From NCBI GenBank assembly GCA_031362565.1, contig JANLSU010000048.1:3664-67663 (forward strand): a stretch of DNA of 64,000 nt, in the 5' to 3' direction. The translations under genes were made by a program, and so were the position numbers. The DNA comes from a bacterium. Lineage in GTDB: Bacteria > Krumholzibacteriota > Krumholzibacteriia > G020349025. The notes beneath the pieces are model-generated. The model saw only the letters and a program-made list of their open reading frames with translations. It did no database searches and had not been told where the DNA came from. Shown in pieces: positions 19,184 to 40,102 of the stretch (position 1 is the stretch's first letter; each line of letters opens with the position of its first letter).

Positions 19184-19331
19184 ACCGCGCCGCCGCGCCG
19201 GCTCCTCGCGCCTTACATCCGGCGCGACAAGGCCGCCGGCCACGGCTATACTGGGTCGCTTCTTGAATCCGCGCCGAGGGCCAAGGCCCCCCAGGACCGC
19301 CCTCCTCTCACCTGCACGCCCGGAGGCTCCC

Positions 19332-22076
19332 ATGTCGTTCGCGTCACGCTGCGTTACACCAGTGGGACTCGCTCTCGCGCTCGCACTGCACGCCGTACCA
19401 GGGCATGCCGGCTACGTCAACTTCGAGAGCCAGCAGGTGCATCCGATCGCCTTGACGCCCGACGGCACGAAGTTGCTCGCGGTCAACACGCCGGACGGCA
19501 AACTCGCGGTTTTCAGCGTCAACGGCGGGAATCCGAGCCTGCTCTTCGAAACCGCCGTCGGCATCGAGCCCGTGAGCGTCGCCGCCGAGAGCAATACCCG
19601 CGCCTGGGTCGTGAACCACGTTTCGGACACGGTCAGCTTGGTCGACTTGCTGAGCGGCAATGTCGTCGAGACGCTGGCCGTCGGCGACGAACCGGCCGAT
19701 GTCGTCTTCGCCAACGGCAAAGCCTTCGTGTCGGTGTCGCAAGAGGACGCGGTCAAGATCTACTCGGTCGCGAATCCGGCCGCGCCGCCGGTCGTCGTGC
19801 CGATCTTCGGCAGCGATCCGCAAGCGCTCGCCCGCAATGCCGCCGGCACGCGCGTCTATGTCGCGGTCTTCGAAAGCGGCAATCAGACGACGATCGCCTC
19901 GGGAACCGATGTCGTCAGTCATGGTGGACTGCCGGCCCCGAACCCCAGCGGCCGGCCGAACGTCGGACTCGTCTTGAAATACGTCAACGGCCACTGGGTG
20001 GACGAAATCAACCGGAACTTCGACAACAGCCATCCGTACACCCTTCCCGACCATGACGTCGCGATCCTGGATGCGACGGCCGGGGTGCCGGCTCCACAGT
20101 ACGTGGACGGCTTGGGCACGCTGCTCTTCAATCTCGCGGTGCATCCGGTCTCGGGCAAGCTCTACGTCACCAATACGGAAGCGCTGAATCAAATCCGCTT
20201 CGAGCCTGCTCTGCGCGGCCAGTTCCTGCGCACCCGCGTTTCGATCGTCGACCCGAACGTGCCGGCGGTGCGTTCGCTCGTCGATCTCAATCCGCACATC
20301 AATTACGGAGTCACTCCGGGACCGCCCTCGGAGACCAGCCAGAGCCTGTCGCAACCGGGCGGGATCGCCTTCCAAGCGGCGGGTGGCGTCGGGTATGTCA
20401 CGGCGCTCGGTTCCGCCAAGGTCGCGGTCCTCGACGATGCCGGCAACGTGACGTCGCGCATCGGCGTCGGCCAGGGCCCGAGCGGACTCGCGCTCGACGA
20501 GACCAATCACCGGCTCTACGTTCTCAACCGCTTCGAAGAAACGATCAGCATCGTCAACACCAATACCCGCGCTGTCGACCACGCGGTGTCCTTGGGATAC
20601 GACCCGAGTCCGCTGACGGTCAAGAACGGCCGCCGCTTCTTGTACGACGGCCAATTGTCATCGGGGCACGGCGATCTGGCGTGCGCGTCGTGTCACGCGG
20701 GCGGCAATCTCGATGCGATCGCCTGGGACCTCGGAGATCCGAACGGCGCGTTCCAGCCGGCGCCGCCGAACCAATTGGATCCGCTGTTGCAAGGCTTCCA
20801 TGCGATGAAGGGCCCGATGACGACGCAATCGCTGCGCGGCCTCGCCGGCACCCAACCCTTCCATTGGCGTGGCGATCGCGCCGACTTCGAGAATTTCAAC
20901 GGTGCGTTCGTGTCACTCATGGGACGTGGGACACAGATTTCGGGCGCCGACATGCAAGCGTTCAAGGATTTCGTCTTTACGATCAAGTACCCGGCGAACC
21001 CCGGCCAGAACTTGGATCGCACCTTTCCGAATCCCGCCAGCGGCCCGAGCCCCGAACGCGGCCGGCAGGCCTTCCTGAACAACATTCTCGATGGCCCGTT
21101 TCGCTGCGTGCAATGCCACGCGCTGCCAACAGGTACGAGCGGTCAATTGACCGACCGCCTGGCGTTGCAGGCGCCGCAGGACATGAAGATTCCGCAGTTG
21201 CGCAATCTCTACGAAAAAACCGGTTTGACGTTCACGGCGGGCGAAAAGAAGCGCGGCTTCGGCTTCATCCACGATGGTTCGGAGCCGACGCTGCTCGAAT
21301 TCTTGCGGCTGCCGGTGTTCACTTTCCCGAGCGACGCCATGCGCCAAGACATCGAGGCTTTCCTGCTGACGTTCGACACCGGGACCGCGCCGGCAGTCGG
21401 CGTGCAGCGCACCGTGTATGCGAGCAATCGCAACGATTTGGCCACCGTACAGTGGATCGAAACACTCATCGCGCAGGACCAAGCCGGCAACTGCGACTTG
21501 ATCGTCAAGGGGCGCTTGAACGGCCAGGCACGCGGTTTCGTCTATGACGGCGCCGGAATGTTCCGCTCGGATCGCGCCTCCGAGCCGTTGATGGCCAAAG
21601 ATTTCCTGCGCGCCTTCGCCGGCACCGGATCCGAACTCACGTACACCGGTGTGCCGCCGGGCTCGGGTACGCGCTCCGGCATCGACCGCGACGAAGACGG
21701 GTACCCGGACCGCACCGAGATCGATGCGGGTTCGGATCCGGCCGATCCGGCATCGACACCCACGCCCGTCGCCAACGGCCCGAACGGCAGCAGCAACGGC
21801 GATGCGACGCTGTTCGCCAGCTATCCCAATCCGGCCCGCGACACCGCGCGGCTGTCCTTCGAATTGGTGGCGCATACCAACGTGCGCTTGCGCATCTATG
21901 CCGCCGATGGCCGGCTCGTACGCGCCCTGTGGGATGGCGCCGCCGGTCCGGGCTTGGTGCGACTGACTTGGGACGGTACGAACGACGGCGGGCATCGCGC
22001 CGCTTCGGGGCGCTATTTCTACCGCCTCGACACGCCGACGCATTCTTTCGCGCGGCCGTTGCTCCTCGTGCGTTGA
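19332..22076 (+). CDS. Secreted beta-propeller (YVTN-type) - dihaem cytochrome c peroxidase/MauG-like - TSP3-like - por_Secre_tail/FlgD-Ig C-terminal domain protein
   Basis: Signal MSFASRCVTPVGLALALALHAVPGHA. Propeller repeats (KLYVTNTEA, RLYVLNRFEETISIVNT). Two haem motifs, CASCHAG and CVQCHAL, with CCP-like context (FHWRGD; PQLRN..GFIHDGSEPTLLEFL). Ca-binding-like DRDEDGYPDRTEID. The C-terminal ~85 aa follow the pattern YPNPA..T.L.FEL...V.L.IY...G..V..LWDG...GG.RAASGRYFYRL. The start is at the internal ATG. The ORF-track extension upstream is Arg/Pro-rich. Confidence 0.8.
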   Translation: MSFASRCVTPVGLALALALHAVPGHAGYVNFESQQVHPIALTPDGTKLLAVNTPDGKLAVFSVNGGNPSLLFETAVGIEPVSVAAESNTRAWVVNHVSDTVSLVDLLSGNVVETLAVGDEPADVVFANGKAFVSVSQEDAVKIYSVANPAAPPVVVPIFGSDPQALARNAAGTRVYVAVFESGNQTTIASGTDVVSHGGLPAPNPSGRPNVGLVLKYVNGHWVDEINRNFDNSHPYTLPDHDVAILDATAGVPAPQYVDGLGTLLFNLAVHPVSGKLYVTNTEALNQIRFEPALRGQFLRTRVSIVDPNVPAVRSLVDLNPHINYGVTPGPPSETSQSLSQPGGIAFQAAGGVGYVTALGSAKVAVLDDAGNVTSRIGVGQGPSGLALDETNHRLYVLNRFEETISIVNTNTRAVDHAVSLGYDPSPLTVKNGRRFLYDGQLSSGHGDLACASCHAGGNLDAIAWDLGDPNGAFQPAPPNQLDPLLQGFHAMKGPMTTQSLRGLAGTQPFHWRGDRADFENFNGAFVSLMGRGTQISGADMQAFKDFVFTIKYPANPGQNLDRTFPNPASGPSPERGRQAFLNNILDGPFRCVQCHALPTGTSGQLTDRLALQAPQDMKIPQLRNLYEKTGLTFTAGEKKRGFGFIHDGSEPTLLEFLRLPVFTFPSDAMRQDIEAFLLTFDTGTAPAVGVQRTVYASNRNDLATVQWIETLIAQDQAGNCDLIVKGRLNGQARGFVYDGAGMFRSDRASEPLMAKDFLRAFAGTGSELTYTGVPPGSGTRSGIDRDEDGYPDRTEIDAGSDPADPASTPTPVANGPNGSSNGDATLFASYPNPARDTARLSFELVAHTNVRLRIYAADGRLVRALWDGAAGPGLVRLTWDGTNDGGHRAASGRYFYRLDTPTHSFARPLLLVR

Positions 22077-22288: not shown

Positions 22289-22852
22289 ATGCGTGCCTTT
22301 CTCGGGCTCGCCGCCGCCATCGTGGCATGTGCTACGGTCGCGAGCGCCGAGTCGTCCATCTGCGGCGATTGCTACCTGGGCGTCTATGACGATCTCGCGA
22401 TGACACGCGTGTCCGGCGTGGCGTCGTCCTTTCAGGTGAAGAGTCTCTACCTTGGGTTGCGTTTAGGGCCGGGCGTGAACATTACGGATATCGATTTCTT
22501 CGCGTCGTATCCGGCGGGATTCGAAGTGATCGACGTCGAGTCCTATGTCCCGGGCGCGACCTACGAGACCGTGGGGCATGTGGCGCACGTCCACTGGCCG
22601 AGTTGCGTCGGTGGAAGCCTGGCGCTGTTCCGCGTCCGAGTGATCACCACCACCATGCCTCACAACGCGGTAGTGCAATTGCAAAGTGTGCTTGCAAAGC
22701 CCTGCGGCGGTGCGCCGGTTGAAGCATGGAGGATCCCAGCGGGTTGCTACGTACTCAACCCCGGCAGCAGCCGGCCGCCGTGCGCCACTGCGGTCGAGGC
22801 GTCGACATGGTCCCTTGTGAAAGGCCTTTTCAGAACGCTTGATTCGCGCTAG
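22289..22852 (+). CDS. Secreted hypothetical protein; distant member of the IPAGY...W..VK.LYR C-terminal-module family
   Basis: Signal MRAFLGLAAAIVACATVASA. Contains RIPAGCYVLN and ends ASTWSLVKGLFRTLDSR, paralleling the C-termini of the four paralogs at 28603..31743. Confidence 0.5.
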   Translation: MRAFLGLAAAIVACATVASAESSICGDCYLGVYDDLAMTRVSGVASSFQVKSLYLGLRLGPGVNITDIDFFASYPAGFEVIDVESYVPGATYETVGHVAHVHWPSCVGGSLALFRVRVITTTMPHNAVVQLQSVLAKPCGGAPVEAWRIPAGCYVLNPGSSRPPCATAVEASTWSLVKGLFRTLDSR

Positions 22853-23007
22853 AGTGTCGGACGTACGCACCCTGGAGTCCTTCCTCCATGGCGCTGGTGT
22901 TTTTTCCGGGTCGTCTTCGTGGCACGGGATTTGTTCGTACGAATTTCGCACGCCACTCTTCGGCTCCGGCCACTTTTCAACGGCTGAATACGAGGCCAAG
23001 ACCACTT

Positions 23008-24147
23008 ATGGCACTGGATACGATAGCCATCCAACGATTGTCCGCCGCGATCGCCGAAGCGATCGAGCAAGCAATAGCGCCGCTCACCGACGAGATCGAA
23101 CAACTGCGCGCCGCGGTCCTCGACTTGCAGGAAGCCGCGGGACAACCCGCGTCACCGGCGGCGCCGCCACGGACCACGCCAACGCTAGAGATACGCGTTC
23201 CGGCGCCGCGCGCCGCGGCCACGATGCGGACTCGCGGCATCACCCATACACAGACCTGTCGCGTGCCGAGGTGTCCGGCACCGGTGCTCGCCAAGGAATT
23301 GTGCGAGACCCATTATCGCGCCATGCGGCGCGCCTCGTCGGCTGGCGAAAAATTCGACCCGCGTACGCAGCGCCCCGCCGGCGCGCGGCCGGTGTCGCGC
23401 GCGTGTGAGGAGCCCGGCTGCGACGACGCCCACTACGCCCGCGGCCTGTGCCGGCGGCACTACATGACACTGCGCGCCCGGGAACGCGCTGCCGAGCGCG
23501 GCGGGCCCGCGCCGGTCACGGTCAGCCGGACGCGTGACACGGATGACGACCACGAATCGACGCGCCACGAGTTAGCGCCTTCGACACCGGCGCGCACCCC
23601 GGAATCGGTGCGGGCATTCGCCGCCGCGGAATTCGCCCCGACCTTCGACCTCGCGGTGGGCGGCGTGCCCGATCACAGCATCGTCGCAATGCCAACGGCG
23701 GAAGTCGTGGCGCGCGTCGTATCGCAGTATCGCGGCGGTCTCGCCAAAGTTGCGGAAGTCCTCGGGCGTAATCGCCGCACGCTCATGGAAATGCTCGAGA
23801 AACTCAATCTCATGGAGCACGTGGTCACCGTGCGCGCGACGGAACGCAAGCGGATCCTCGCAGCACCGCTCCGCGAACGCTTGGCGGACCTCCTGTTCCG
23901 GGAGAAACTGCTCGACGATCTCGGCTGCCTCAAGGAAGTCGACGAGTCGGCACGCGGCGAAATCCAACTGCGCTGTGCCAAGCTCGCCAAGACGTGCTCG
24001 ACGCAGGAAGAATTGTTTTCCAAGCTCGCGATCGAGTGCGGACTCGAGGACGCCGGGATCAAACGGCTCGTCTGGCGCTATGACCTCCGCCGCCAGCTCC
24101 GCGGCCTGAAGTCGGCACGCCCGGCGCCGACCCGCGTGCACCCTTGA
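23008..24147 (+). CDS. Putative DNA-binding regulator: two zinc-ribbon-like repeats (Cx3-4C...LCxxHY) plus a Fis-type HTH
   Basis: The repeats are CRVPRCPAPVLAKELCETHYRAMRR and CEEPGCDDAHYARGLCRRHYMTLR. The HTH is VVSQYRGGLAKVAEVLGRNRRTLMEMLEKLNL (Fis/NtrC C-terminal-like). The start is chosen at internal MALDTIAIQRL, because the ORF-track N-terminus is low complexity. Confidence 0.5.
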   Translation: MALDTIAIQRLSAAIAEAIEQAIAPLTDEIEQLRAAVLDLQEAAGQPASPAAPPRTTPTLEIRVPAPRAAATMRTRGITHTQTCRVPRCPAPVLAKELCETHYRAMRRASSAGEKFDPRTQRPAGARPVSRACEEPGCDDAHYARGLCRRHYMTLRARERAAERGGPAPVTVSRTRDTDDDHESTRHELAPSTPARTPESVRAFAAAEFAPTFDLAVGGVPDHSIVAMPTAEVVARVVSQYRGGLAKVAEVLGRNRRTLMEMLEKLNLMEHVVTVRATERKRILAAPLRERLADLLFREKLLDDLGCLKEVDESARGEIQLRCAKLAKTCSTQEELFSKLAIECGLEDAGIKRLVWRYDLRRQLRGLKSARPAPTRVHP

Positions 24148-28246: not shown

Positions 28247-28602
28247 ATCCGGGGCCGGCGGGCCGCCGCCACGACGACGCGGACGTGCGCAACTGCTTTG
28301 CACCCTTTGACTTTCAGTCGCGACTCGCGATACCATGGGGGCACTGCTGGTCGCCCTGCGGGTCCATTCTGCCGTGGATCGGATTCGCGCCCCTCTCGCT
28401 CCAGTGTTGCACGCGGAGCAGCGAGGTTCGAAGGCAGCGGAGGAAGAGCAGCCGACGCGGTTTGGAAACGAACGCGCGTCGAATGAGATCACAGCTGTGG
28501 TGCTGATCGTTTGCACCCGACGTTGCGTTGTATCCACGCTGTGCCCGTCGTATCTGCGCCCACCTACGCGCGGATTCGGCTCGCAAGGGGGAAACCGATC
28601 CG

Positions 28603-29271
28603 ATGAAGAGAGTGTCGTTGCTCACCACGGCCGCCATGCTCCTGCTCGCGGGAAGCGCTGCGGCCCAGAACGCTCTGATCGACTATCAGGGCTACTCCTA
28701 CGAGACCGGTGGATTTCCGGTCAGCAATCCCGGCGACGTTTTGTCGATCGTCGGGGTCGTCGACAATCTCGATGCACGCTTCGGCGTGAATCTGGCCGTT
28801 GACGAAGTAACTCTGTACGTCACGAATCTCGTTTCGACGGGCCAGGTCGACCAGGGCGGCGGAGTCCTCTCCATCGCCTACGGCGGCGGCTCCATCGATC
28901 TGTACCGCGACCCGAGCCGTGATCACGATTACGGCATCTCGCCGCCCAACGCGACCGCACCGTCGACGTTCACGAACGGCGCATTGTTCCTGGGCGGAAC
29001 GCTCAACAGTTTCTTCATGTTCTACGATTCCGCGACCGGCAGCGGGGCGTACGAAGGCAATGCGTCCTTCACGGCAGGAAGCGGTTTGGTGACGCTGAAC
29101 CAGTTGAATGCGGCAGGATACACATTTGGTGGAACCCTCGGTTCCGCAGCATCCGGTGGCAACGTTCCGGCGGGTTACGACCTGCAGGTCGACGGCGTCA
29201 TCGAAGTCGAAGTCATCGTCGGCGTCGAGCAGAAGAGCTGGGGCGCCGTGAAGGACCTGTACCGCCGCTGA
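28603..29271 (+). CDS. Secreted paralog A1 of a novel Gly/Thr/Ser/Asn-rich family with a conserved C-terminal module
   Basis: Signal MKRVSLLTTAAMLLLAGSAAAQ. RBS AAGGGGG upstream. The C-terminus is NVPAGYDLQVDGVIEVEVIVGVEQKSWGAVKDLYRR. It shares ~65% identity with A2. Confidence 0.7.
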   Translation: MKRVSLLTTAAMLLLAGSAAAQNALIDYQGYSYETGGFPVSNPGDVLSIVGVVDNLDARFGVNLAVDEVTLYVTNLVSTGQVDQGGGVLSIAYGGGSIDLYRDPSRDHDYGISPPNATAPSTFTNGALFLGGTLNSFFMFYDSATGSGAYEGNASFTAGSGLVTLNQLNAAGYTFGGTLGSAASGGNVPAGYDLQVDGVIEVEVIVGVEQKSWGAVKDLYRR

Positions 29272-29335
29272 TCGCGGTCGAACCCAATTTGTCGAACACA
29301 CACATCGTAGGATGAGGTTCGTTCCGGAGGTTTTC

Positions 29336-29959
29336 ATGCACATCAAAGCGACTGCAGCTTCGCTGGCCGTGGTGGCGTTGCTGGCCAGCGCCGGTGCCGC
29401 GGTGGCGGATCCGCCCAACTTCGATTTCTTCGGCTACGCGCAGGTCCCGGCAGCGCCCGGGGGCGGACTCATCGTCCGCAGCGTGTTGACGAACAACGGG
29501 GTCGTCCCGACGCCCATCGTTCTCGACTTCACCACCAAGCAGTACACACTGGTGATCACCGGCACGTTCGCAAGCGCCGCCGGCATCGCGCAGCAGTACA
29601 GCGGCGGTACGTTGTCGATCTACGAGGACGCGATCGGCGGCGGAACGGCGGCAAACTATGCGAGCCCGGCGACCTTCACCGACGGCACGTTGATTCTGAC
29701 CGGCGTCGTGGACGGCAACCTGACCCGCAACACGTTCACGCCGACGCTCGGCAACTTCATTGCCAAGATCGACTTCACCGGCGGCACCCGCTTGGGGAGC
29801 CTGAGCACGCCCCAGGACTGGCCGTGCGGCGGCGGCTGGAGCCGGAGCGTTTCCGGGATCCCGGCCGGCTACCAAGAGAACTGGGACGGCAAGATCGACC
29901 TCGCGGTCGTTGGCGTCGAGAGCAAGAGCTGGGAAGGCGTCAAGGCCCTCTACCGCTGA
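29336..29959 (+). CDS. Secreted paralog B1 (second subfamily)
   Basis: Signal MHIKATAASLAVVALLASAGAAVA. GGAGG RBS. DPPNFDFFGYAQV...; the C-terminus is GIPAGYQENWDGKIDLAVVGVESKSWEGVKALYR. It lies 65 nt downstream of A1. Confidence 0.7.
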   Translation: MHIKATAASLAVVALLASAGAAVADPPNFDFFGYAQVPAAPGGGLIVRSVLTNNGVVPTPIVLDFTTKQYTLVITGTFASAAGIAQQYSGGTLSIYEDAIGGGTAANYASPATFTDGTLILTGVVDGNLTRNTFTPTLGNFIAKIDFTGGTRLGSLSTPQDWPCGGGWSRSVSGIPAGYQENWDGKIDLAVVGVESKSWEGVKALYR

Positions 29960-29986
29960 TCTCGAGCCCCGATCCGCTGCACACTC

Positions 29987-30014
29987 GGCCCGGCTTCCTC
30001 CTGGAGGCCGGGCC
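29987..30014 (+). terminator. Terminator-like hairpin after B1
   Basis: GGCCCGGCTTCC-tcct-GGAGGCCGGGCC (one mismatch in the stem), 28 nt after the stop. Confidence 0.4.
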
Positions 30015-30402
30015 GAATGCTTTTGGGGCCGGTTTGCCCCCTCACCCAGGGACCGGCGGCGCCTGGAACCGAATAAGATTCGGAACGAGCGCGACTTGTC
30101 GCCAAGCAGCGGTTTGACTTTCCAGGCTCCGGCCTGATAGGATGGCCGCGATCCGTACAGCAGCCCTCGGAGCGATTCACGTTCTCTGCACGTTGATCGT
30201 TTTGGGAAAAGCCGCCGGAGTCATCTTTCGAACTGCTGGCATCACGATTCATGCATGCACCAGCTCGCGGTTCGGTTGCCGTCCGAGTGTTCAGCGACAC
30301 GCGATGGAGTCCGTCTCCTCTGCACTTGTGGTTCGACATCTGCGCCGTCACCGTTGACGCGAATCGCGCGACAGCGTGACCTCGTAGGGAGGGAAGCCTC
30401 GG

Positions 30403-31071
30403 ATGAAAAAAACCAACTTCATGATCGCCGCGATGGCGCTTTTGGTGAGCAGCGCCGCTCACGCGAACGTTGCCATCATCGACTACCAAGGCTACGCGTG
30501 GGAAACGGGCGGCTTGCCGCTCAGTAATCCCGGCGATGTGCTCTCGGTTGTGGGCGTCGTCGACGCGCTCGACGCCAGCTTCGGCGTCAACCTGTTGATC
30601 GACGAAGTCACGGTCTACGCCTCGGGTCTCGTGTCGACCGGCCAAATCGACCTGGGCGGTGGGGTGCTTTCCGTGTCGTACACCGGCGGCACGCTCGAGC
30701 TCTGGCGCGATCCAAGCCGCGACCACGACTACGGTGTGTCGCCGCCGAACACCACCGCACCGCCGACGTTCGTAAACGGCGGGCTCTTCTTGGGCGGCAC
30801 GTTCCAGAATTTCTTCCTGTTCCTCGACACGTCCACCGGGACCGGCGCTTTCCAGGGCGACGTCGCCTTCACGGCCGGCAGTGGAATCGCGGCGCTGAGC
30901 GCCCTGCAGCCCAACGGGTTCACGTTCGGAGGAACCTTGAATTCGGCGGCGTCCGGCGGCAACGTGCCGGCGGGATACGACATGCAAGTCGACGGAACGC
31001 TGCAAGTAGAAATCGTCACGGGCGTCGAGGACAAGAGCTGGGGCGCCGTGAAGGAAATGTACAGACGGTAA
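30403..31071 (+). CDS. Secreted paralog A2
   Basis: Signal MKKTNFMIAAMALLVSSAAHA. Collinear with A1. The C-terminus is ...EDKSWGAVKEMYRR. Confidence 0.7.
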   Translation: MKKTNFMIAAMALLVSSAAHANVAIIDYQGYAWETGGLPLSNPGDVLSVVGVVDALDASFGVNLLIDEVTVYASGLVSTGQIDLGGGVLSVSYTGGTLELWRDPSRDHDYGVSPPNTTAPPTFVNGGLFLGGTFQNFFLFLDTSTGTGAFQGDVAFTAGSGIAALSALQPNGFTFGGTLNSAASGGNVPAGYDMQVDGTLQVEIVTGVEDKSWGAVKEMYRR

Positions 31072-31119
31072 TCGGGCGACATCGCTTCAACCCTTGGCAA
31101 CGCGGTCCCGGAGGTTCAA

Positions 31120-31743
31120 ATGAGAGTGAAAGTTCTCGCTGCTGCGCTGGCTCTGGGGGCGCTGGTGACCAGCCCAGTCGCCCGGGCGGCCGATCCGCCA
31201 AACTTCGACTTCAACGGCTACGCCCAGGTGTCGGACGTGCTCGCCAGCAGCCTGACCATGCGTAGCGTGCTCACGAACAACGGCGTCGTGCCGACGCCGA
31301 TCGTGCTCGATTTCACGACCAAGCAGTACACGCTCGTCCTCACGGGGACGCTGAGCAGCATCGTGGGCATCGCGCGCAACTACTCGGCAGCGACGTGCGC
31401 GGTCTACGAAGATGCAATCGGCGGCGGCACCGCGGCGGACTACGCGAATCCCGCCACCTTCACCGACGGCACCGTGATTCTGTCGGGGAACTTCGATGGT
31501 TTCCTGGTGCGCAACCGGTTCACGGCGACGCTCGGCAATTTCATCGGCAAAGTTGATTTCAACGCCGGAACGCGCCTCGGGGACATGGTGACGGCACAGG
31601 ACTGGCCGTGCGGCGGCGGTTGGAGCCGGACGGTGTCCGGGATCCCGGCCGGCTACCAGGAGAACTGGGACGGCAAGATCGACCTCGCACCGGTCGGAGT
31701 CAACAACCTGGGCTGGGACGGCGTGAAGCAGCTCTTCCGCTGA
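31120..31743 (+). CDS. Secreted paralog B2
   Basis: Signal MRVKVLAAALALGALVTSPVARA. Collinear with B1. The C-terminus is GIPAGYQENWDGKIDLAPVGVNNLGWDGVKQLFR. Confidence 0.7.
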   Translation: MRVKVLAAALALGALVTSPVARAADPPNFDFNGYAQVSDVLASSLTMRSVLTNNGVVPTPIVLDFTTKQYTLVLTGTLSSIVGIARNYSAATCAVYEDAIGGGTAADYANPATFTDGTVILSGNFDGFLVRNRFTATLGNFIGKVDFNAGTRLGDMVTAQDWPCGGGWSRTVSGIPAGYQENWDGKIDLAPVGVNNLGWDGVKQLFR

Positions 31744-31767: not shown

Positions 31768-31803
31768 AACGGCCTGGTCTTCGGACCGGGCCGTTTTCTT
31801 TCG
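31768..31803 (+). terminator. Rho-independent terminator (hairpin with TTCG tetraloop plus a T-tract)
   Basis: AACGGCCTGGTC-ttcg-GACCGGGCCGTT is followed by TTTCTTTC, 25 nt after the B2 stop. Confidence 0.55.
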
Positions 31804-33547: not shown

Positions 33548-34893
33548 TCCGACGCGACGACGTACGCGAATCGTTGCGCCTCGCGCTGCCCGTGGTGCTG
33601 ACGCAACTCGGTTCCATGGCCATGGGCACCGTCGATACGCTCATGGCGGGACGCCTGGGACCCGAGGCGATTTCCGCCGTCGGGCTCGGGAGCAGCATCG
33701 GCATCGCGCCGCTCATCGTCGGAATGGGCACCCTTATGGGGCTCGATCCGATCGTGTCGCAAGCCTTCGGCGCCGGTGATTTCCCGCGCTGCGGACGCGC
33801 GATGCGGCACGGCCTGTTGCTGGCATGCATCCTGAGCGTGCCGATCATGGCGGTGTTGTGGCAAGCGCGGTTCATCCTCACGCACTTGGGCGAACCACGT
33901 GAACTCGTCGACGCAACGGCGCCATTCCTCCGCGTTTGGAGTTTGGGCACCTTGCCGTTTTTGATGTTCGCCACGCTGCGCCAGTTTCTGCAGGGCGTCG
34001 GCGTCGTGAAGCCGGCGATGTGGATCGTGTTCGGCGCCAACGTCCTCAACTTTGCCGCCAACTGGGTGCTGATCTTCGGACATTGCGGCATGCCGGCGCT
34101 CGGCATCGTCGGGTCGGCGTGGGCGACCACCATCAGCCGCATTGCGATGTGCGTGGCGCTCGCACTGTATGTCTTCCGAAGGCCGGTGCTGCACCAGTAC
34201 GCGGTCTGGGCGGCGCGCGGCCGCATCGATCGGGCGCTCTTCAGCCGCCTGGTGCACTTGGGTGCCCCGGTGGGCCTGCAGTTCGGGATGGAAGTCGGCG
34301 TCTTTTCGGCCGCATCGGTCATGATGGGATGGCTGGGAACGGTGGCGCTCGCCGGCCATCAAATCGCCCTCAACCTGTGCAGCATCACGTTCATGGTGCC
34401 GCTCGGGTTGTCGACCACCGCGGCAGTCCGCGTCGGCCAGGCACTCGGGCGCGACGATGTGCATGCCGCGCGCCGCGCCGCCGTCGTGGCCTACGGGATG
34501 GGAATCGGCTTCATGTCGCTCTCGGCACTGACGTTCGCATCCATCCCGCACCAGCTCGTCAGTTTGTATACCGGTGATCTGGCGGTGGCGGACATCGCGG
34601 CGCGCCTGCTGCTCGTGGGCGCCGTGTTCCAGGTCTTCGATGGCGGCCAGACGATCGGCATCGGAGCGCTGCGCGGTGCCGCCGATACACGCCTCCCGAT
34701 GTTCGTGACGATCGTCGCGTACTGGGTGGTGGGCTTGCCACTCGGCTGGTGGCTCGCGTTTCGCGGCGGGCAAGGCCCGGCGGGGCTGTGGTGGGGTCTC
34801 ACGGCCGGCCTGACGTGCGTGGCGTTAGTGCTCGGATGGCGCTTCTACGTGCGGGTGCGGCCCGAGCGTTTGGCCGAACTCAAGGCCCACTGA
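33544..34893 (+). CDS. MATE-family efflux transporter
   Basis: 449 aa with 12 predicted TM helices and typical MATE N-terminus ...LALPVVLTQLGSMAMGTVDTLMAGRLG. It overlaps the upstream stop (ATGA). Confidence 0.8.
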   Translation: MIRRDDVRESLRLALPVVLTQLGSMAMGTVDTLMAGRLGPEAISAVGLGSSIGIAPLIVGMGTLMGLDPIVSQAFGAGDFPRCGRAMRHGLLLACILSVPIMAVLWQARFILTHLGEPRELVDATAPFLRVWSLGTLPFLMFATLRQFLQGVGVVKPAMWIVFGANVLNFAANWVLIFGHCGMPALGIVGSAWATTISRIAMCVALALYVFRRPVLHQYAVWAARGRIDRALFSRLVHLGAPVGLQFGMEVGVFSAASVMMGWLGTVALAGHQIALNLCSITFMVPLGLSTTAAVRVGQALGRDDVHAARRAAVVAYGMGIGFMSLSALTFASIPHQLVSLYTGDLAVADIAARLLLVGAVFQVFDGGQTIGIGALRGAADTRLPMFVTIVAYWVVGLPLGWWLAFRGGQGPAGLWWGLTAGLTCVALVLGWRFYVRVRPERLAELKAH

Positions 34894-37024
34894 CGCCCGG
34901 CGCACTGCGAACGATCCGCAGGATCCGGTCGGCGGGAACGCGCACATCGATGAGGTTCTCGACGGCGCCATCGGGCCACGTCACCCGCACGACGTCGAGG
35001 CGCGTCGCCATGCCGATGCCGGCGCGCACCGGTTGCGTCGTGATGCGGCTCGATTGCACCAGCGTCCCGGTATGCACCTCGAGCCATGCACCGACGCCGT
35101 CCTGGATGCCACGCGGCCCCGCGAGGGAGATTTCGAGGTACCCGTTGGCGCTGCCGCCCTCGTTCCATTGCACTTCGACGACGCTGTCGGCGCGCACACA
35201 CGCCAGATCGAGGTCACCATCGAGATCGAAGTCCGCTGCGGCGACCGAGCCGGTGAGGACAGGCGCCGACGCCGATTCGAGCCGGTCTTCGGCTGCGAAT
35301 AGCACGCCGCGTCCCGAATTCCGCCACAACGCCAGATCCGAGGCCCGCGGCGCGTTGGGGAGCGGCGGCTCGGGGGCCGTGTCTTCGGCCACTCCGGCTG
35401 AAGAACCGCGCGCATCGGCCGGCATGACTTTGCCCCCGACGGCAAAGTTCGTCGCCGGTGCAATGACGGGGCCGCGCGAGTGCAACGTCACGATGTCTTC
35501 GAACCCGTCGTTGTCGAAATCGAATCGTACCAAGCCCGCGACCGGCACCTCGACCGGACGATCGTGAGCATACGTTGTTTGCGGAACGCGATAGGCGGCG
35601 GCACGCACGAACCGCGCACTGCCGCGGTTGGCCAACAGCCAAAGGCCGTTTTCGTTGCCGACCAAGAGATCGAGGGTGCCGTCGGCATCCATATCCGCCG
35701 CATCGACGACGCGGGCGCGTTCCAAATTGAGGCCGGCGACCCGGCTCGTGTTGACGAAGGCGCCGGCGGCGGTTTGAACGAGGACCCGCAGCCGGCCGGC
35801 AACATCCGCGGCGACCAGATCGGGGCGTTGATCGCCGGAGAAATCGCCGCACACAACATCACGGAGCGGCGGCATGGACTCGAGCCCGCGCGCCGCAAAT
35901 TCCGTATCGAAGCGTCCGTTGCCATCGTTGCGCCACACATGCAATCCCGGCGCCGACGTCGTTGCGATAACCAGATCCAGATGGCCGTCGCGATCGAAAT
36001 CACAACTTTGCCAGGCACGAATTTCGTACGGCACATCGGCAACGAGATCGGGCGCCGATGACCCGCCGTGCAGCAGCCACACGCGAGTGTGCAACGACGG
36101 CGGCGCCGCCGGCTTGGCCGTTGCCGCACCGGCGCTTGCATCCGGAATGGGCAGCGTCGCGGCGAGAATGACATCGGGCCGGTCGTCGCGATCGGCGAGC
36201 AGGGTGATTGCGGCCCGCACGGTACCCGCCGGCAAGACCGGCTGCGGCGTCCAGCGCACGCCAGTGCCTGCCGAGTCGGCACGCAGTGCGACGTCGCTGC
36301 CGGCGAGCACCAGATCCGGGCGGCCATCGCCATTCACGTCGGCAACTGCGAGCCCGGTGGCGCGCGCGTCGAGCGAATCACGGCGGAAACGCACCGTAAT
36401 AGCGCCGGCCGTCGAGACCGGCGGCCGCGGCGGCACCTGCACATCGATGAGCCGCGCTGCTTCGGCGGTGGCGCTCGTTCCCGAAGGATCGAGGCGGGCC
36501 GCTTCGGCGCGCGACTTGTCCGCTAGGTCATGGCGCCCGGCGTCGGCATAGGCCGCGGCGAGGGCGGCGCGAATCGCCGGCGCGGTTGGGTCGGCACCGG
36601 CCGCGGCTTCGAAGTCTTGCAGTGCGAGCGCCAGCAGCCGGGCGGATTCCGCCTGTTTCTTTTCCGAACCATTGGATTGGGCTTCGTCACGCAATTCGTG
36701 GCCGCGCGTTTGACGCAGAACTCCGAGGTCGTAATGGGCGCGCGCGTCCTGCGGATCGACTTGCAGCGCGGTAGTCCAGGACTGTTCCGCGGCGCGCTCC
36801 TGGCCCCGCCGCCATTGCACGAGACCAAGATTCGTCCACGCCACCGGATCGCGCGATTCGTCTGCGAGTTCGGAAAGGATGGCTTGAGCGCGTTTCAAAT
36901 CGCCGTTCTCGAACCAAGCGCGCGCCTTCACCGTGGCTTCGTAGCGCGCTTCCGGACTCTCGGGGGCTGGGCTGCAGCCCAGTGCCAGCAAGAGGAGGAC
37001 GAACGGACCCATCCGACGCAACAT
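34880..37024 (-). CDS. Lipoprotein with N-terminal TPR repeats and FG-GAP/VCBS/ASPIC-UnbV-like (CRTAC1-like) repeats
   Basis: Lipobox LLLLALGCS. TPR-like helices. Repeated ...DVNGDGRPDLV..., DFDRDGHLDLV, DMDADGTLDLLV, DFDLDGDLDL motifs. The C-terminal ASPIC/UnbV-like region is GYLEISLAGPRGIQDGVGAWLEV. The exact start codon is uncertain (several Met in the first 20 aa). Confidence 0.7.
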   Translation of the reverse strand: MLRRMGPFVLLLLALGCSPAPESPEARYEATVKARAWFENGDLKRAQAILSELADESRDPVAWTNLGLVQWRRGQERAAEQSWTTALQVDPQDARAHYDLGVLRQTRGHELRDEAQSNGSEKKQAESARLLALALQDFEAAAGADPTAPAIRAALAAAYADAGRHDLADKSRAEAARLDPSGTSATAEAARLIDVQVPPRPPVSTAGAITVRFRRDSLDARATGLAVADVNGDGRPDLVLAGSDVALRADSAGTGVRWTPQPVLPAGTVRAAITLLADRDDRPDVILAATLPIPDASAGAATAKPAAPPSLHTRVWLLHGGSSAPDLVADVPYEIRAWQSCDFDRDGHLDLVIATTSAPGLHVWRNDGNGRFDTEFAARGLESMPPLRDVVCGDFSGDQRPDLVAADVAGRLRVLVQTAAGAFVNTSRVAGLNLERARVVDAADMDADGTLDLLVGNENGLWLLANRGSARFVRAAAYRVPQTTYAHDRPVEVPVAGLVRFDFDNDGFEDIVTLHSRGPVIAPATNFAVGGKVMPADARGSSAGVAEDTAPEPPLPNAPRASDLALWRNSGRGVLFAAEDRLESASAPVLTGSVAAADFDLDGDLDLACVRADSVVEVQWNEGGSANGYLEISLAGPRGIQDGVGAWLEVHTGTLVQSSRITTQPVRAGIGMATRLDVVRVTWPDGAVENLIDVRVPADRILRIVRSAPGVSGP

Positions 37025-37394
37025 CGCTCCGCACCTTCCCATCCGCCTCGACCCCATGCACCGCACCGCGCGGCGCCGCGCGCGCCTCCAGACGACACCT
37101 GACGACGTGGTGGCTCAGGCCTGGAATCCGCGCGCCACCGGCACCCGACAGTGCGCAAGATGCACGCCGGGACGGCTTGCCCCCCGCGCCGCACGTGCAG
37201 CGGCATTGTACGGCGGCGTGCAGCCGGTCTCAATGCATCCGATCAGCAGTGTCCACTGCGTGGCGCATTGCTTCTCGATGCACCCGCCTGCGGTTGCTGG
37301 CTGCGTGGCACTCCGAATGCTATAGTTTCGATGGATTTCGGCCGCGCGGTGCGTAGTCGCGCTTGCCTGCCCTCTGAACTGCGAGGTTTTCATC

Positions 37395-37949
37395 TTGAAA
37401 CAACGGCGGCTGGTTTCGATCGCGACGCTGGCGGTGACGCTGGCGGCCGCGGTGGGCGGTCTGGCGGTAGTGGGGGCCGGTTCCGAACGCACCGCCCCGG
37501 TCGCCGCCGAGGTGCGCCCGGCACCGCAATCCTGCAAACCCGTGGCGCCGGTGCATGTGACGCTCGAGCCAGGCGCCGCGCCCGGCGTGTGGCATGTGCA
37601 CCTGAATGCGGTCGCGAGTGCGAACGACGTCACCGTCGTCGTGGGGTCGAACCGTGGCGACGTCGCGGCCGGCAGCCTCGTGGTCTGGCACGGCAGCCTC
37701 GAGCCCGGTGCCGGTCAGGCGATCGAAGCCCGGTTCCCGGTTGCCGACGATGTGACCAGCGTTTGGGCCGAAGCTCGGATCGCATCCGCGCCCGGCGTGA
37801 CGCAGCGCGACCTGGCGGTACTCGAGGTGCTGAACGGCAAGGCAGCGGCCCGAACTGCGAGTTCCGCCGCCACCGGGCGGGTCGTCACCGACCCGCAGAC
37901 CGGCGAGTCCGTGGTCGAGTTTCAGGGTGAAACGGCGGGCAAGCGATGA
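37395..37949 (+). CDS. Signal-anchored hypothetical protein (184 aa) co-transcribed with the metalloprotease
   Basis: TTG start with GAGGT upstream. Hydrophobic N-terminus LVSIATLAVTLAAAVGGLAVVGAG. Its stop overlaps the next start (ATGA). Confidence 0.45.
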   Translation: MKQRRLVSIATLAVTLAAAVGGLAVVGAGSERTAPVAAEVRPAPQSCKPVAPVHVTLEPGAAPGVWHVHLNAVASANDVTVVVGSNRGDVAAGSLVVWHGSLEPGAGQAIEARFPVADDVTSVWAEARIASAPGVTQRDLAVLEVLNGKAAARTASSAATGRVVTDPQTGESVVEFQGETAGKR

Positions 37950-40102
37950 GCCGCCGCGCCCGCCTCGGCGCCGCCTTTGCCGCGGTTCTCGCTATCGCCG
38001 CGACGGCACAGGCCAACTACACGGTGAGCGGCAAGTTTCAGTACCGTGACCGCCCGTTCGGCGCATCCGGTTTCACCGGTACGACGGTCGATCTCCCGAT
38101 CCGGTTCGCCGACGTCGAAGTCTATGACACCAGCACCAGCGCGGTTCTGGGGTCGGGGGCCACGGATGCAACCGGCAGTTTCTCTTTTGCGGTGACCGAC
38201 GCCGCGACTCGCAACATCGCCGTGCGGGCCAAGACGACGTCGGTGAAGACGCCCACTCTCAAGATCCGGGTGATCACTCCGTCGCCGGGTAACCTCGTAT
38301 TTGCGGTCGCGACGACGGCGTTCAACAACCACACCTCGACCACGAACATCGACTTCACCGCGACACCGGTGGTGGCGGTCCCCTCGGTCTTCACCGCCCC
38401 CGCTGTAGCAGGTGCCGGGGACGCATTCAATATTTTCGACAACGCGCTCGACGCGATGGACTTCATCGCCACGCTGAACGGCTCACGCCCGACACAGCTC
38501 TTGACGCTGCACTGGGATCTGAATTCGGGCGATGGAACGTACTACTCGGATGCCGACCGGACCATTCACTTGCTGGGCCTCAGCAGCGATTCTGACGGTT
38601 ACGACGATACGGTGATTCTGCACGAAATCGGCCACTACACCGAGTTCACGCTGGCGGCGAGCGACAACCCCGGCGGCGGTCACAGTCTGAACGGGGTGTA
38701 CGCGCTGACCCTGACCTGGTCCGAGGGCTGGGCGACGTTCTTCGCGAACATGGTGCGCAAGTGGCGGGGTTTCTCGCGGCCCGAGATCTACGTCGACATG
38801 TTCCCAGCGGCCGGATCCGGCCATCTGTTGATTTCCTACGAATTGGAAACCCCGAATGCCGGCGTGCTTGGCGCCGACAACGAGGTTTCGGTGAATGCAG
38901 CGCTGTGGGATCTGGTCGATGACACGACGACACTGGACGCGACACCCGGCGTCGATGACGACCCGCTGCGGCTGCCGAACGGTCCCCTGGAGTTCTGGCA
39001 AACGTTCACGACCTATTTCCCAACTGCGACGACGATCAGCATGGAAGATTTTTGGGACGGCTGGTTCGCGGGCGGACATGACCACCTGGCGGACATGCGC
39101 ACCACCTTCGGAGCGCACGGGATCGAGTATTTTGACGACAGCTTCGAACCGGATGACGGCGTCGCGCAAGCGCGGACCGTGGTGGCCGGCTCGGCTGCCG
39201 CGCATCACACGATCTACTCGGCCGGCGATGCGGATTGGTGCATCATCGGCGTGCAGGGCGGCGCGCAGTATGAGTTCATGACCCAGTCCCCGGCCCGAAC
39301 CTTTCCGCCCCCAGCAACCCCGCCGCTGCTGAGCGGTGGGGTGACCCACCTCGAGCTCTATGTCAACAATGGCGCGACCCTGGTCGCGACCAGCGCCGAC
39401 GACAATCCGGTCTCGACGCTCAGCTACACGCCGGCACAGACGAGCATCGTCTGGCTGCGTTGCCGGCGCCCGGACAATGTCAATACGTACGGATCGTACG
39501 ACCTCGTGGTGACCGGACCGCCGGTTGCCGTCCGGGTGAGCGATGTCAACGTCAATGCCTTCGGCCGGGCCCTGCGCCTCACTTGGCAGGCAGCGCGCGA
39601 TGGCGCGTTCTCGCACTTCGAGATCGAGCGCGCCGGGTCCGACACCGGGCCCTGGGACGTCCTCGGAACCGTTGCCGAACCGGGCAACGCCAATACGCCC
39701 TACGAATTTGTCGATGCGACGGTGGAGGCCGGAAGGACGTATCAATTCCGTATCATAGGCGTCGAAGCCGACGGCACGCGCGAAGCATTCGGACCGTTCG
39801 CGGCCACGGCGCCGGCACCGGCACGAGTCGCGCTCGCGGCGCCGCAGCCGAATCCGTTCAATCCAACGACCGTATTGCGCTTCGAATTGCCACGCGCGGG
39901 GCGGGTCTGGCTGCGGATTTTCGCGGCTTCCGGAGCGCACATCCGCAGCCTCGTCGCCGGCGAATCCCTGGGCGCGGGTTCCTACGCGCGCACCTGGGAC
40001 GGGCGCGACGACAGCGGCCATGCAGCGGCTTCCGGGGTGTACTGGGCGCGCGTCGATGCCGGCGCGGAACACGCCACCCAGCGCGCGGTGCTGGTGCGCT
40101 GA
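37946..40102 (+). CDS. Secreted zinc metalloprotease (HExxH) with Ig-like N-terminal domain, PPC-like domain and por_Secre_tail/FlgD-Ig C-terminal domain
   Basis: Signal MSRRARLGAAFAAVLAIAATAQA. Active-site motif VILHEIGHYTEF. The C-terminus PQPNPFNPTTVLRFELPRAGRVWLRIFAASGAHIRSLV...TWDGRDDSGHAAASGVYWARV matches the CTD pattern of two other proteins in the window. Confidence 0.7.
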   Translation: MSRRARLGAAFAAVLAIAATAQANYTVSGKFQYRDRPFGASGFTGTTVDLPIRFADVEVYDTSTSAVLGSGATDATGSFSFAVTDAATRNIAVRAKTTSVKTPTLKIRVITPSPGNLVFAVATTAFNNHTSTTNIDFTATPVVAVPSVFTAPAVAGAGDAFNIFDNALDAMDFIATLNGSRPTQLLTLHWDLNSGDGTYYSDADRTIHLLGLSSDSDGYDDTVILHEIGHYTEFTLAASDNPGGGHSLNGVYALTLTWSEGWATFFANMVRKWRGFSRPEIYVDMFPAAGSGHLLISYELETPNAGVLGADNEVSVNAALWDLVDDTTTLDATPGVDDDPLRLPNGPLEFWQTFTTYFPTATTISMEDFWDGWFAGGHDHLADMRTTFGAHGIEYFDDSFEPDDGVAQARTVVAGSAAAHHTIYSAGDADWCIIGVQGGAQYEFMTQSPARTFPPPATPPLLSGGVTHLELYVNNGATLVATSADDNPVSTLSYTPAQTSIVWLRCRRPDNVNTYGSYDLVVTGPPVAVRVSDVNVNAFGRALRLTWQAARDGAFSHFEIERAGSDTGPWDVLGTVAEPGNANTPYEFVDATVEAGRTYQFRIIGVEADGTREAFGPFAATAPAPARVALAAPQPNPFNPTTVLRFELPRAGRVWLRIFAASGAHIRSLVAGESLGAGSYARTWDGRDDSGHAAASGVYWARVDAGAEHATQRAVLVR

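Follow-up and report, generated by a model that had tools for sequence, protein, structure and literature searches.

A portable C-terminal tag on Sec-exported proteins of Krumholzibacteriota and related bacteria, probably a sorting or retention signal

Introduction

Four small 'hypothetical' genes lie in tandem, in the order A1-B1-A2-B2, in a 64,000-nt stretch of Krumholzibacteriota DNA (GenBank assembly GCA_031362565.1, contig JANLSU010000048.1, positions 3,664 to 67,663 of the forward strand; G+C ~65%), called the window hereafter. Their products, and that of a fifth gene upstream, appear to be secreted and end in the same short peptide, of the form W..VK.LYR. What is such a tag doing at the end of otherwise different secreted proteins? 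A preliminary description of the locus had offered two answers: a sorting or anchoring tag distinct from the por_Secre_tail C-terminal domain (CTD) of other proteins in the window, or an interaction strand between the subunits of a secreted polymer. The question reaches beyond this locus. Known C-terminal tags (LPXTG, PEP-CTERM, GlyGly-CTERM, MYXO-CTERM and the CTD of the type IX secretion system, T9SS) each led to a dedicated envelope machine, and C-terminal sorting tags are the main handle for surface-proteome prediction.

Here we show by sequence comparison that the tag is a portable, lineage-restricted and C-terminally constrained module on Sec-exported proteins of many folds, and that it holds the position of sorting signals in homologous cargo elsewhere. 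On our best reading it is probably a new C-terminal sorting or retention signal, devoid of a transmembrane (TM) helix, that coexists with T9SS CTDs. Taxon labels throughout are the titles of metagenome-assembled genome (MAG) records.

Results

Five window proteins end in the same tag

The five tag-bearing genes of the window are:

28603..29271, + strand: A1, 222 aa, with a Sec signal, a beta-rich body predicted to be remotely PepA-like, and the C-terminal tag
29336..29959, + strand: B1, 207 aa, paralog of A1; start moved from 29312
30403..31071, + strand: A2, 222 aa, 65% identity to A1 (E 5e-115)
31120..31743, + strand: B2, 207 aa, 70% identity to B1
22289..22852, + strand: fifth tag-bearing protein, 187 aa, Cys-rich, with a predicted cohesin-like beta-sandwich body

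The N-termini of all five open reading frames (ORFs) look like Sec signal peptides, called by inspection from a K/R-containing n-region, a hydrophobic core and an AxA-like site. Strand, signals and identities bear out the tandem A-B-A-B array of secreted paralogs in the preliminary description. The A1 protein has an exact copy in public data (P0001), where it is also called as a gene, and A2 corresponds to P0056. For B1, a start at 29336 (MHIKAT), the one chosen by an independent gene call, places GGAGG 7 nt ahead of the ATG; the corrected length of 207 aa equals that of B2, and the A-B spacers become 64 nt and 48 nt, within the 48-65 nt first given. A and B had been taken for mutually distant proteins sharing a few blocks only. 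This did not hold: because the 32% identity of A1 and B1 (E 8e-17) spans their entire length, A and B are, at the level of sequence, whole-length homologs and paralogs of each other.

The fifth protein resembles A and B over its last 50-64 residues only (BLAST ~50 aa, E 0.001; hhalign 64 columns, E 3e-5, probability 72%). A six-frame search with the regular expression W..[VIL]K.[LMIV][YFW] gave exactly 5 matches in 64 kb, all at the ends of these five ORFs, and thereby placed the same tail on the fifth protein, as had been proposed. The tags are:

29215..29268, + strand: A1 tag IVGVEQKSWGAVKDLYRR, aa 205-222 (regular expression, logo; AlphaFold2, AF2, helix predicted at 213-221)
29906..29956, + strand: B1 tag VVGVESKSWEGVKALYR, aa 191-207 (regular expression, logo)
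31015..31068, + strand: A2 tag IVTGVEDKSWGAVKEMYRR (regular expression, logo)
31690..31740, + strand: B2 tag PVGVNNLGWDGVKQLFR (regular expression, logo)
22781..22849, + strand: fifth-protein tag CATAVEASTWSLVKGLFRTLDSR, Cys at -9 (regular expression; AF2 helix predicted at 171-186)

The B2 tag is somewhat degenerate (LGWDGVKQLFR), and the fifth protein continues with TLDSR after its tag. Pfam gave no match for any of the five proteins; their NCBIfam matches at E<=10 were noise only (E 0.05-0.23), a PepA match being confined to the signal-peptide region, and none was to a CTD.

The tag recurs on unrelated proteins in a restricted set of lineages

The tail was searched as a hidden Markov model (HMM) of 48 positions against 1.84e9 cluster representatives with a cut-off of E<=1e-3. 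This returned 266 representatives, nearly all of them fragments or proteins of 170-250 aa, aligned at the extreme C-terminus; the motif lay at most 12 residues from the end in 124 of the 144 newly numbered matches listed (P0248-P0391). We then took 77 proteins with the tail and a length of at least 165 aa, most of them HMM matches and 8 found earlier, removed the last 45 residues and compared the bodies that remained. Clustering yielded a superfamily that includes A and B (61/77), the family of the fifth protein, a third family, an NTF2/SnoaL-like pair and several singletons, so that the tail-stripped bodies form at least 4 groups unrelated by BLAST, plus singletons.

The top HMM matches also included very large repeat proteins (P0248, P0249, P0251-P0253 and others), some with LPXTG-like ends. 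They match profile positions ~4-33, the 'VPxGYxLxxDG' part, only, 8-14 times each, and were set aside as tag carriers on that ground; their repeats point to a recurrent beta-hairpin-like motif that seems unrelated to the terminal tag.

One genome per GTDB species (185,579 genomes) was scanned at the DNA level for the pattern [ST]WG.[VI]K.LYR directly before a stop codon. At least 118 loci match, against ~9 expected by chance as calculated from the information content of the pattern over 1.2e12 positions (fewer at high G+C). By record title, the matches listed comprise 32 loci in Eisenbacteria, 10 in Krumholzibacteri*, 9 in 'Fibrobacteraceae' or Fibrobacter, 5 in Latescibacter*, 4 in Gemmatimonadota and 1 each in Limnocylindria and Udaeobacter; 56 carry no phylum label, and none of those listed is labelled Pseudomonadota, Actinomycetota, Bacillota or Bacteroidota. 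Among the 125 ORFs that end at a listed scan match, 97 combine a clear signal peptide with a length of at least 140 aa; lipoprotein boxes are present in a few. The sequences upstream of the tag are mutually unrelated across these ORFs. Under the strict pattern, 15 assemblies have at least two tag loci among the matches listed, and the genes can be clustered: seven are consecutive at L044 1648-6972 (+), where at least two products have lipoprotein boxes (…SGCGDDDK, …SGCSDN), and four at L037 2445-5628 (+), with adjacent pairs seen elsewhere. The preliminary description had allowed that the motif might be confined to the window paralogs; the HMM and genome searches both place it on many other proteins.

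The tag is a short, predicted helix at the very end of the protein

A logo of 124 representatives aligned on the tryptophan gave the profile [PAT]-[VT]-[PAS]-[VTA]-E-x-x-[TS]-W(98%)-G(82%)-x-[VIL]-K(99%)-x-L(79%)-[YF](98%)-R(71%), in which positions -8 to -2 are conserved though unconstrained by the scan pattern. In 67% of the 124 the R is the last residue before the stop codon, and in 22% one more residue intervenes. What is universal is the last ~17 residues only. The shared C-terminal module as first drawn was longer: its terminal part proved portable, while the IPAGY...DG block, absent from the other carriers, is a feature of A/B superfamily bodies and, in weak form, of the fifth protein's family. 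About half of the genome-scan tags have a Cys at -9 to -11 from the Trp, often as CxC or CxxC (CDNCVSSPVEPTTWG, CECPVPNEPASWG); A and B have none there, and the fifth window protein has one at -9.

In the AF2 models of A1 and the fifth protein, two proteins with unrelated bodies, the tail comes out as a helix with a predicted local distance difference test score (pLDDT) of 63-79. On a helical wheel, the variable positions x2 and x5 and the Gly at +1, conserved but without a side chain, fall on one face and W, V/I, K, L, Y/F and R on the other, with S/T at the helix N-cap. A short amphipathic helix is the predicted structure of the tail, given the AF2 helices on two bodies and this periodicity of conservation. 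In the tag, a short stretch of extended linker, [PA][VT][PA][VT]E, would lead into a 9-residue helix with an S/T cap, W-G-x-[VI]-K-x-L-[YF]-R, which would normally close the protein. It contains no TM segment or hydrophobic stretch: the protein ends 8-10 residues past the Trp, with one or two basic residues after it. An outer-membrane beta-barrel BAM beta-signal, a C-terminal strand with an aromatic end, was considered and rejected, as the tags mostly end in Arg and the tail is modelled as helical.

The near-invariant lysine raises by analogy the possibility that the tag directs covalent attachment to peptidoglycan. In Braun's lipoprotein (Lpp) the C-terminal ...YRK is cross-linked to peptidoglycan by L,D-transpeptidases, and the Lpp end, ...KYRK, is likewise basic and aromatic with a conserved lysine. 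The tag lysine is, together with the tryptophan, its most invariant residue, the motif ends in K-x-L-Y-R, sometimes with a further K or R, and its extreme C-terminal location would fit. However, the Lpp lysine is the terminal residue of one lipoprotein, whereas that of the tag is internal, 4-5 residues before the end (+4 from the Trp), on many proteins, two-thirds of which end in the R itself; nor was an L,D-transpeptidase enriched among the neighbours of the 120 tag loci described below. We consider this explanation improbable.

Tag cargo elsewhere carries known sorting signals

Domain searches of the 97 signal-bearing carriers revealed a broad range of exported cargo. Pfam matches include lamin-tail (LTD), right-handed beta-helix/NosD, CHRD and cupredoxin domains, NHL and SGL propellers, M10 (matrixin) and reprolysin peptidases, carbohydrate-binding modules (CBMs) and ThuA; NCBIfam adds choice-of-anchor W, ExeM ('exonuc_ExeM-GG'), DNRLRE, ScyF (PEP-CTERM), PepA, and myxosortase- and rhombosortase-dependent metalloproteases. 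NTF2-like lipoproteins are also among the carriers. In other phyla, members of these cargo families carry PEP-CTERM, GlyGly-CTERM or MYXO-CTERM. The tag itself is modelled in neither Pfam (2025 copy) nor NCBIfam 20.0.

In this respect the tag resembles the small sorting signals of the PEP-CTERM/exosortase, GlyGly-CTERM/rhombosortase, MYXO-CTERM/myxosortase and LPXTG/sortase systems. All lie at the extreme C-terminus of proteins with Sec signals, are portable over unrelated cargo domains, are lineage-restricted and occur on several to many proteins per genome, and the cargo overlaps in kind (choice-of-anchor W, ExeM, ScyF, M36-type and MXAN_2677-type metalloproteases, PepA). The architecture differs: all characterised small sorting signals combine a signature motif with a TM helix and an Arg cluster, and the tag is without the latter two. 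No NCBIfam sorting-signal model matches it, and no cognate intramembrane protease or transpeptidase was found nearby.

The tag is not always terminal. P0294 (606 aa) and P0363 (286 aa) consist of 3 or 2 tandem NTF2/SnoaL-like modules, each module ending in a tag, and the internal copies are well conserved (...TWSGVKSIYRR, ...TWTGMKSLYRV, ...SWSDFKGLYRR). Such copies could mean that a polyprotein is processed, or that the tag needs no free C-terminus to work.

The tag coexists with T9SS CTDs

The T9SS CTD (por_Secre_tail/FlgD_ig-like) is likewise a C-terminal signal on secreted proteins of bacteria of the FCB (Fibrobacteres-Chlorobi-Bacteroidetes) group. It differs from the tag in being a folded Ig-like beta-sandwich of ~70-100 aa, as compared with ~17 aa with a predicted 9-residue helix, and the two have no sequence similarity. 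Two large secreted proteins of the window have FlgD_ig-type (T9SS-like) CTDs, each assigned by a FlgD_ig match:

19329-22076, + strand: FlgD_ig-type CTD protein with, in addition, a beta-propeller, a TSP3 repeat and a weak di-haem CCP/MauG-like region
37946-40102, + strand: FlgD_ig-type CTD protein

T9SS-CTD proteins also occur within 8 kb of the tag genes in 28 of 120 loci. Because CTD proteins are present both in the window and at these loci, the two signals coexist in genomes and neighbourhoods, in the window only a few kb apart. Tag carriers are mostly ~190-340 aa long, the neighbouring T9SS-CTD proteins 500-1400 aa, and lamin-tail cargo is apparently found with either signal, to judge from Pfam and neighbour clustering. 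The claim of a tag distinct from the window's CTDs thus stood as regards modularity and distinctness, and its sorting or anchoring role is what we weigh in the Discussion.

The A/B proteins are remote relatives of PepA beside a glycosyltransferase gene

Relatives in public metagenomes number 201 for A1 and 120 for B1. None has a Pfam domain, their given names are always 'hypothetical protein', and the few with an organism label are from Candidatus Krumholzibacteria. A and B genes recur together on the same contigs. Two long related contigs, L001 and L002, keep the order of the window: a GT4 glycosyltransferase gene, A-B-A-B, a DHDPS gene on the opposite strand and a SpoU methylase gene; on L001 an ortholog of the fifth gene is syntenic, upstream of the A-B-A-B block. 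The first A of L002 (78%) is a closer match to window A1 than the adjacent A2 is (65%), and the tandem duplication therefore predates these genomes. Some copies appear damaged. The first A gene of L001 (7036-7701) is split or truncated, its product being a C-terminal fragment of 123 aa, and in the second B gene of L002 (12502-13227) a frame shift near the C-terminus removes the tag; either assembly errors or pseudogenes in one module copy may account for this. In a divergent Krumholzibacteria B-like subgroup (P0238-P0242) the tail is degenerate and without Trp (...PMGDLKVLFR, ...SVGEVKSRF), keeping a Lys and an aromatic residue near the end, and three of the five also end in Arg.

The AF2 model of A1, built from a 77-sequence A+B alignment, has a pLDDT of 82.5 and eight long beta-strands ahead of the terminal helix. 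The A/B body is probably beta-rich, an eight-stranded barrel or sandwich by this model. Foldseek against the PDB gave no significant match for it (best E 0.02, TM-score 0.3), the top hits being assorted 8-10-stranded barrels and those to OmpA and OprG insignificant (E>0.04, TM-score <0.2). For the fifth protein it returned generic cohesin/CBM-like sandwiches only (TM-score <=0.5 normalised to the query), and neither the body nor the tail, searched as an HMM, found a relative among PDB sequences.

No known domain had been recognised in these proteins, and in Pfam this remains so. B-type members, in contrast, consistently give sub-threshold matches to the NCBIfam family floc_PepA (NF033554), the flocculation-associated PEP-CTERM protein of Aquincola and Zoogloea. 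It was matched by 28 of 77 A/B-family members at E<=1 (best E 2.6e-6), and B-type cores are collinear with it over ~100 residues (profile ~50-178, E 4e-5 to 4e-3). Because all scores (17-27 bits) lie far under the curated cutoff of 80 bits for this equivalog, the relation is, as far as profile alignment tells, one of remote homology to PepA and not membership of floc_PepA. PepA is a small secreted protein that binds exopolysaccharide (EPS) to cells (PMC9850573). The A/B proteins are small secreted proteins too, and just as PepA is associated with exopolysaccharide, the A/B genes adjoin a glycosyltransferase gene. The A/B proteins differ from PepA in that they have no PEP-CTERM domain and end in the W..VK.LYR tag instead, and their genes differ in having no sigma54 promoter and being organised as paired paralogs. 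Each A/B gene would give a Sec-exported protein of ~185-200 residues after removal of the signal peptide, and the products are likely an envelope- or EPS-associated matrix protein pair encoded beside the GT4 gene.

Each A-B pair appears to be a transcription unit of its own

Signals around the two pairs were as follows:

28307..28336, + strand: sigma70-like promoter match ~270 nt upstream of A1, by consensus match only
29985..30016, + strand: terminator-like hairpin after B1, 14 bp with 11 GC, then a T-rich tail
30114..30143, + strand: sigma70-like promoter match ~260 nt upstream of A2, by consensus match only
31775..31793, + strand: terminator-like hairpin after B2, from the hairpin scan

The hairpins that had been reported after each B were thus recovered. 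The sigma70-like matches would imply long 5' leaders; aligned with each other, the regions upstream of A1 and A2 have no real similarity, and hence no leader RNA is shared. A search of 21.5-33 kb with Rfam gave a sub-threshold Pxr match over the B1 terminator only and none in the leaders, and no credible sigma54 site, such as that of Aquincola pepA, lies upstream of A1 or A2. A1-B1 and A2-B2 would be two separately transcribed copies of an old two-gene unit.

This organisation is what might be expected if A and B were the major and minor subunits of a secreted polymer, a fimbria or functional amyloid, with the tail as interaction strand or as the last strand of one fold. The pairing is strict in many contigs, old (as the low A1/B1 identity indicates) and within one transcription unit, and other tag genes also form adjacent pairs. 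The tail, however, is predicted to be helical on both A1 and the fifth protein; the tag is found on enzymes and many unrelated folds; within +/-10 kb there are no genes of usher, chaperone or CsgEFG-like type; and the sequences have no amyloid-type repeats. A direct comparison with chaperone-usher and curli A/B pairs was also rejected, given the neighbours (GT4, DHDPS, SpoU, MatE), the helical end, the lack of repeats and CsgF matches at noise level (best E 0.028). An A/B heterodimer could still form, but the tag would need another explanation. The polymer-strand and last-strand readings of the tag are contradicted, and we regard them as highly improbable.

Neighbourhood clustering reveals no dedicated partner gene

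Gene order around the A/B block is conserved in related genomes, as described above, but the neighbour search proposed with the preliminary description brought up no processing protease, chaperone or usher-like partner. Clustering of 2,643 neighbour ORFs from 120 tag loci likewise gave no partner or sorting enzyme; the only neighbours to recur were ABC ATPases, sulfatases and T9SS-CTD proteins, the last of these linked in the clustering by their CTDs.

This result bears on a further explanation, that the tag is read by a periplasmic PDZ-type protease or chaperone as a signal for processing, quality control or degradation. PDZ and carboxylate-clamp readers typically recognise short peptides, and a tag near a free C-terminus would suit them. 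No protease was enriched at the 120 loci, though. It is also difficult to see why dozens of structural proteins and enzymes that look abundant should carry a degron and keep it from phylum to phylum, and a terminal Arg is atypical among the known bacterial PDZ ligands. We therefore rate such a role as quite improbable.

A precedent for a short C-terminal peptide that forms a helix is the secretin S-domain/pilotin system PulD-PulS, in which the peptide becomes an amphipathic helix and the partner targets the protein to the outer membrane. Unlike the tag, it concerns one protein pair and is not proteome-wide; the two have no sequence similarity, and no pilotin candidate was found.

Two other ORFs of the window are noted in passing:

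22888-24147, + strand: 419-aa ORF directly downstream of the fifth tag gene, without Pfam match or signal peptide, with repeated C..C...HY..(M/L)R motifs and a Fis-type helix-turn-helix-like C-terminal stretch; probably a regulator
34880-37066, - strand: 728-aa protein with TPR, FG-GAP and ASPIC/UnbV domains

The latter recurs in L002, where, as in the window, its gene lies downstream of the ABAB-DHDPS-SpoU-MatE block; near the corresponding block of L001 there is only a shorter, 422-aa FG-GAP_3 protein.

Discussion

The tag described here marks Sec-exported proteins of many folds, and its cargo in other phyla bears established sorting signals. After Sec export, a lineage-specific envelope factor would recognise the conserved helix face (W, V/I, K, L, Y/F, R) together with the nearby free C-terminus, and would sort or retain the cargo at the outer membrane, the cell surface or the matrix; on homologous cargo the tag would replace the roles of PEP-CTERM, GlyGly-CTERM, MYXO-CTERM or the T9SS CTD. 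To this reading as a whole, with the A/B proteins as PepA-like matrix protein pairs, we assign a probability of roughly 0.6. Full-text literature searches for the motif, and for the carrier phyla in connection with secretion, found no prior description. The Fibrobacter 'basic terminal domain' was also considered; it sits on large glycoside hydrolases.

Several observations weigh against this reading. A sorting enzyme or other partner did not emerge from the neighbour clustering, and the TM helix and Arg cluster that its characterised counterparts have are missing from the tag. The conserved internal copies in P0294 and P0363 fit a docking peptide or structural element better than a strictly C-terminal cleavage signal, and some carriers are already lipoproteins. 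The pLDDT of the tag helix is moderate, no cultured carrier was identified, and the lineage assignments all come from MAG record titles.

The missing neighbour partner, the internal copies and the lipoproteins are no less compatible with a peptide for docking or retention than with a sorting signal that is cleaved. The tag might then act without covalent linkage, as a mini 'dockerin-like' or matrix-binding helix whose role is docking or ligand binding. It would need no dedicated export step and would stick diverse secreted proteins to one another, to a common scaffold, or to exopolysaccharide or lipopolysaccharide (LPS). A short amphipathic helix that conserves one face would suit such a function, as would module ends that stay conserved within a chain, a tag on lipoproteins, and A/B bodies related to an EPS-binding protein and encoded next to a GT4 glycosyltransferase. 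Against it, the chain ends 0-1 residues after the R in 89% of tags, which is unexpected for a simple binding helix, and the neighbourhoods of the 120 loci yielded no scaffold candidate. Docking also overlaps the 'retention' half of the explanation we favour, and the present data do not separate the two. As an account of the tag on its own, we find it rather unlikely.

We thus retain a sorting or retention signal read by an envelope factor as the favoured explanation. The wider proposal is that the tag defines an unrecognised sorting or surface-anchoring pathway for small secreted cargo, one that does without a TM anchor, runs parallel to the T9SS, is common to Eisenbacteria, Krumholzibacteriota, Latescibacterota, Gemmatimonadota and related FCB lineages, and has the A/B proteins among its commonest cargo; this we put forward tentatively, at a shade under even odds.

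The carrier phyla are mostly represented by uncultured genomes, and most of the tag-bearing proteins found here drew no family annotation. The tag would give a way to annotate part of the surface and matrix proteome in these phyla, and a query for phylogenetic profiling toward the recognition machinery. If the favoured explanation is true, a sorting or retention signal can do without the canonical TM-plus-Arg architecture, and the four 'hypothetical' genes of the window would become those of PepA-like matrix protein pairs with a defined address label.

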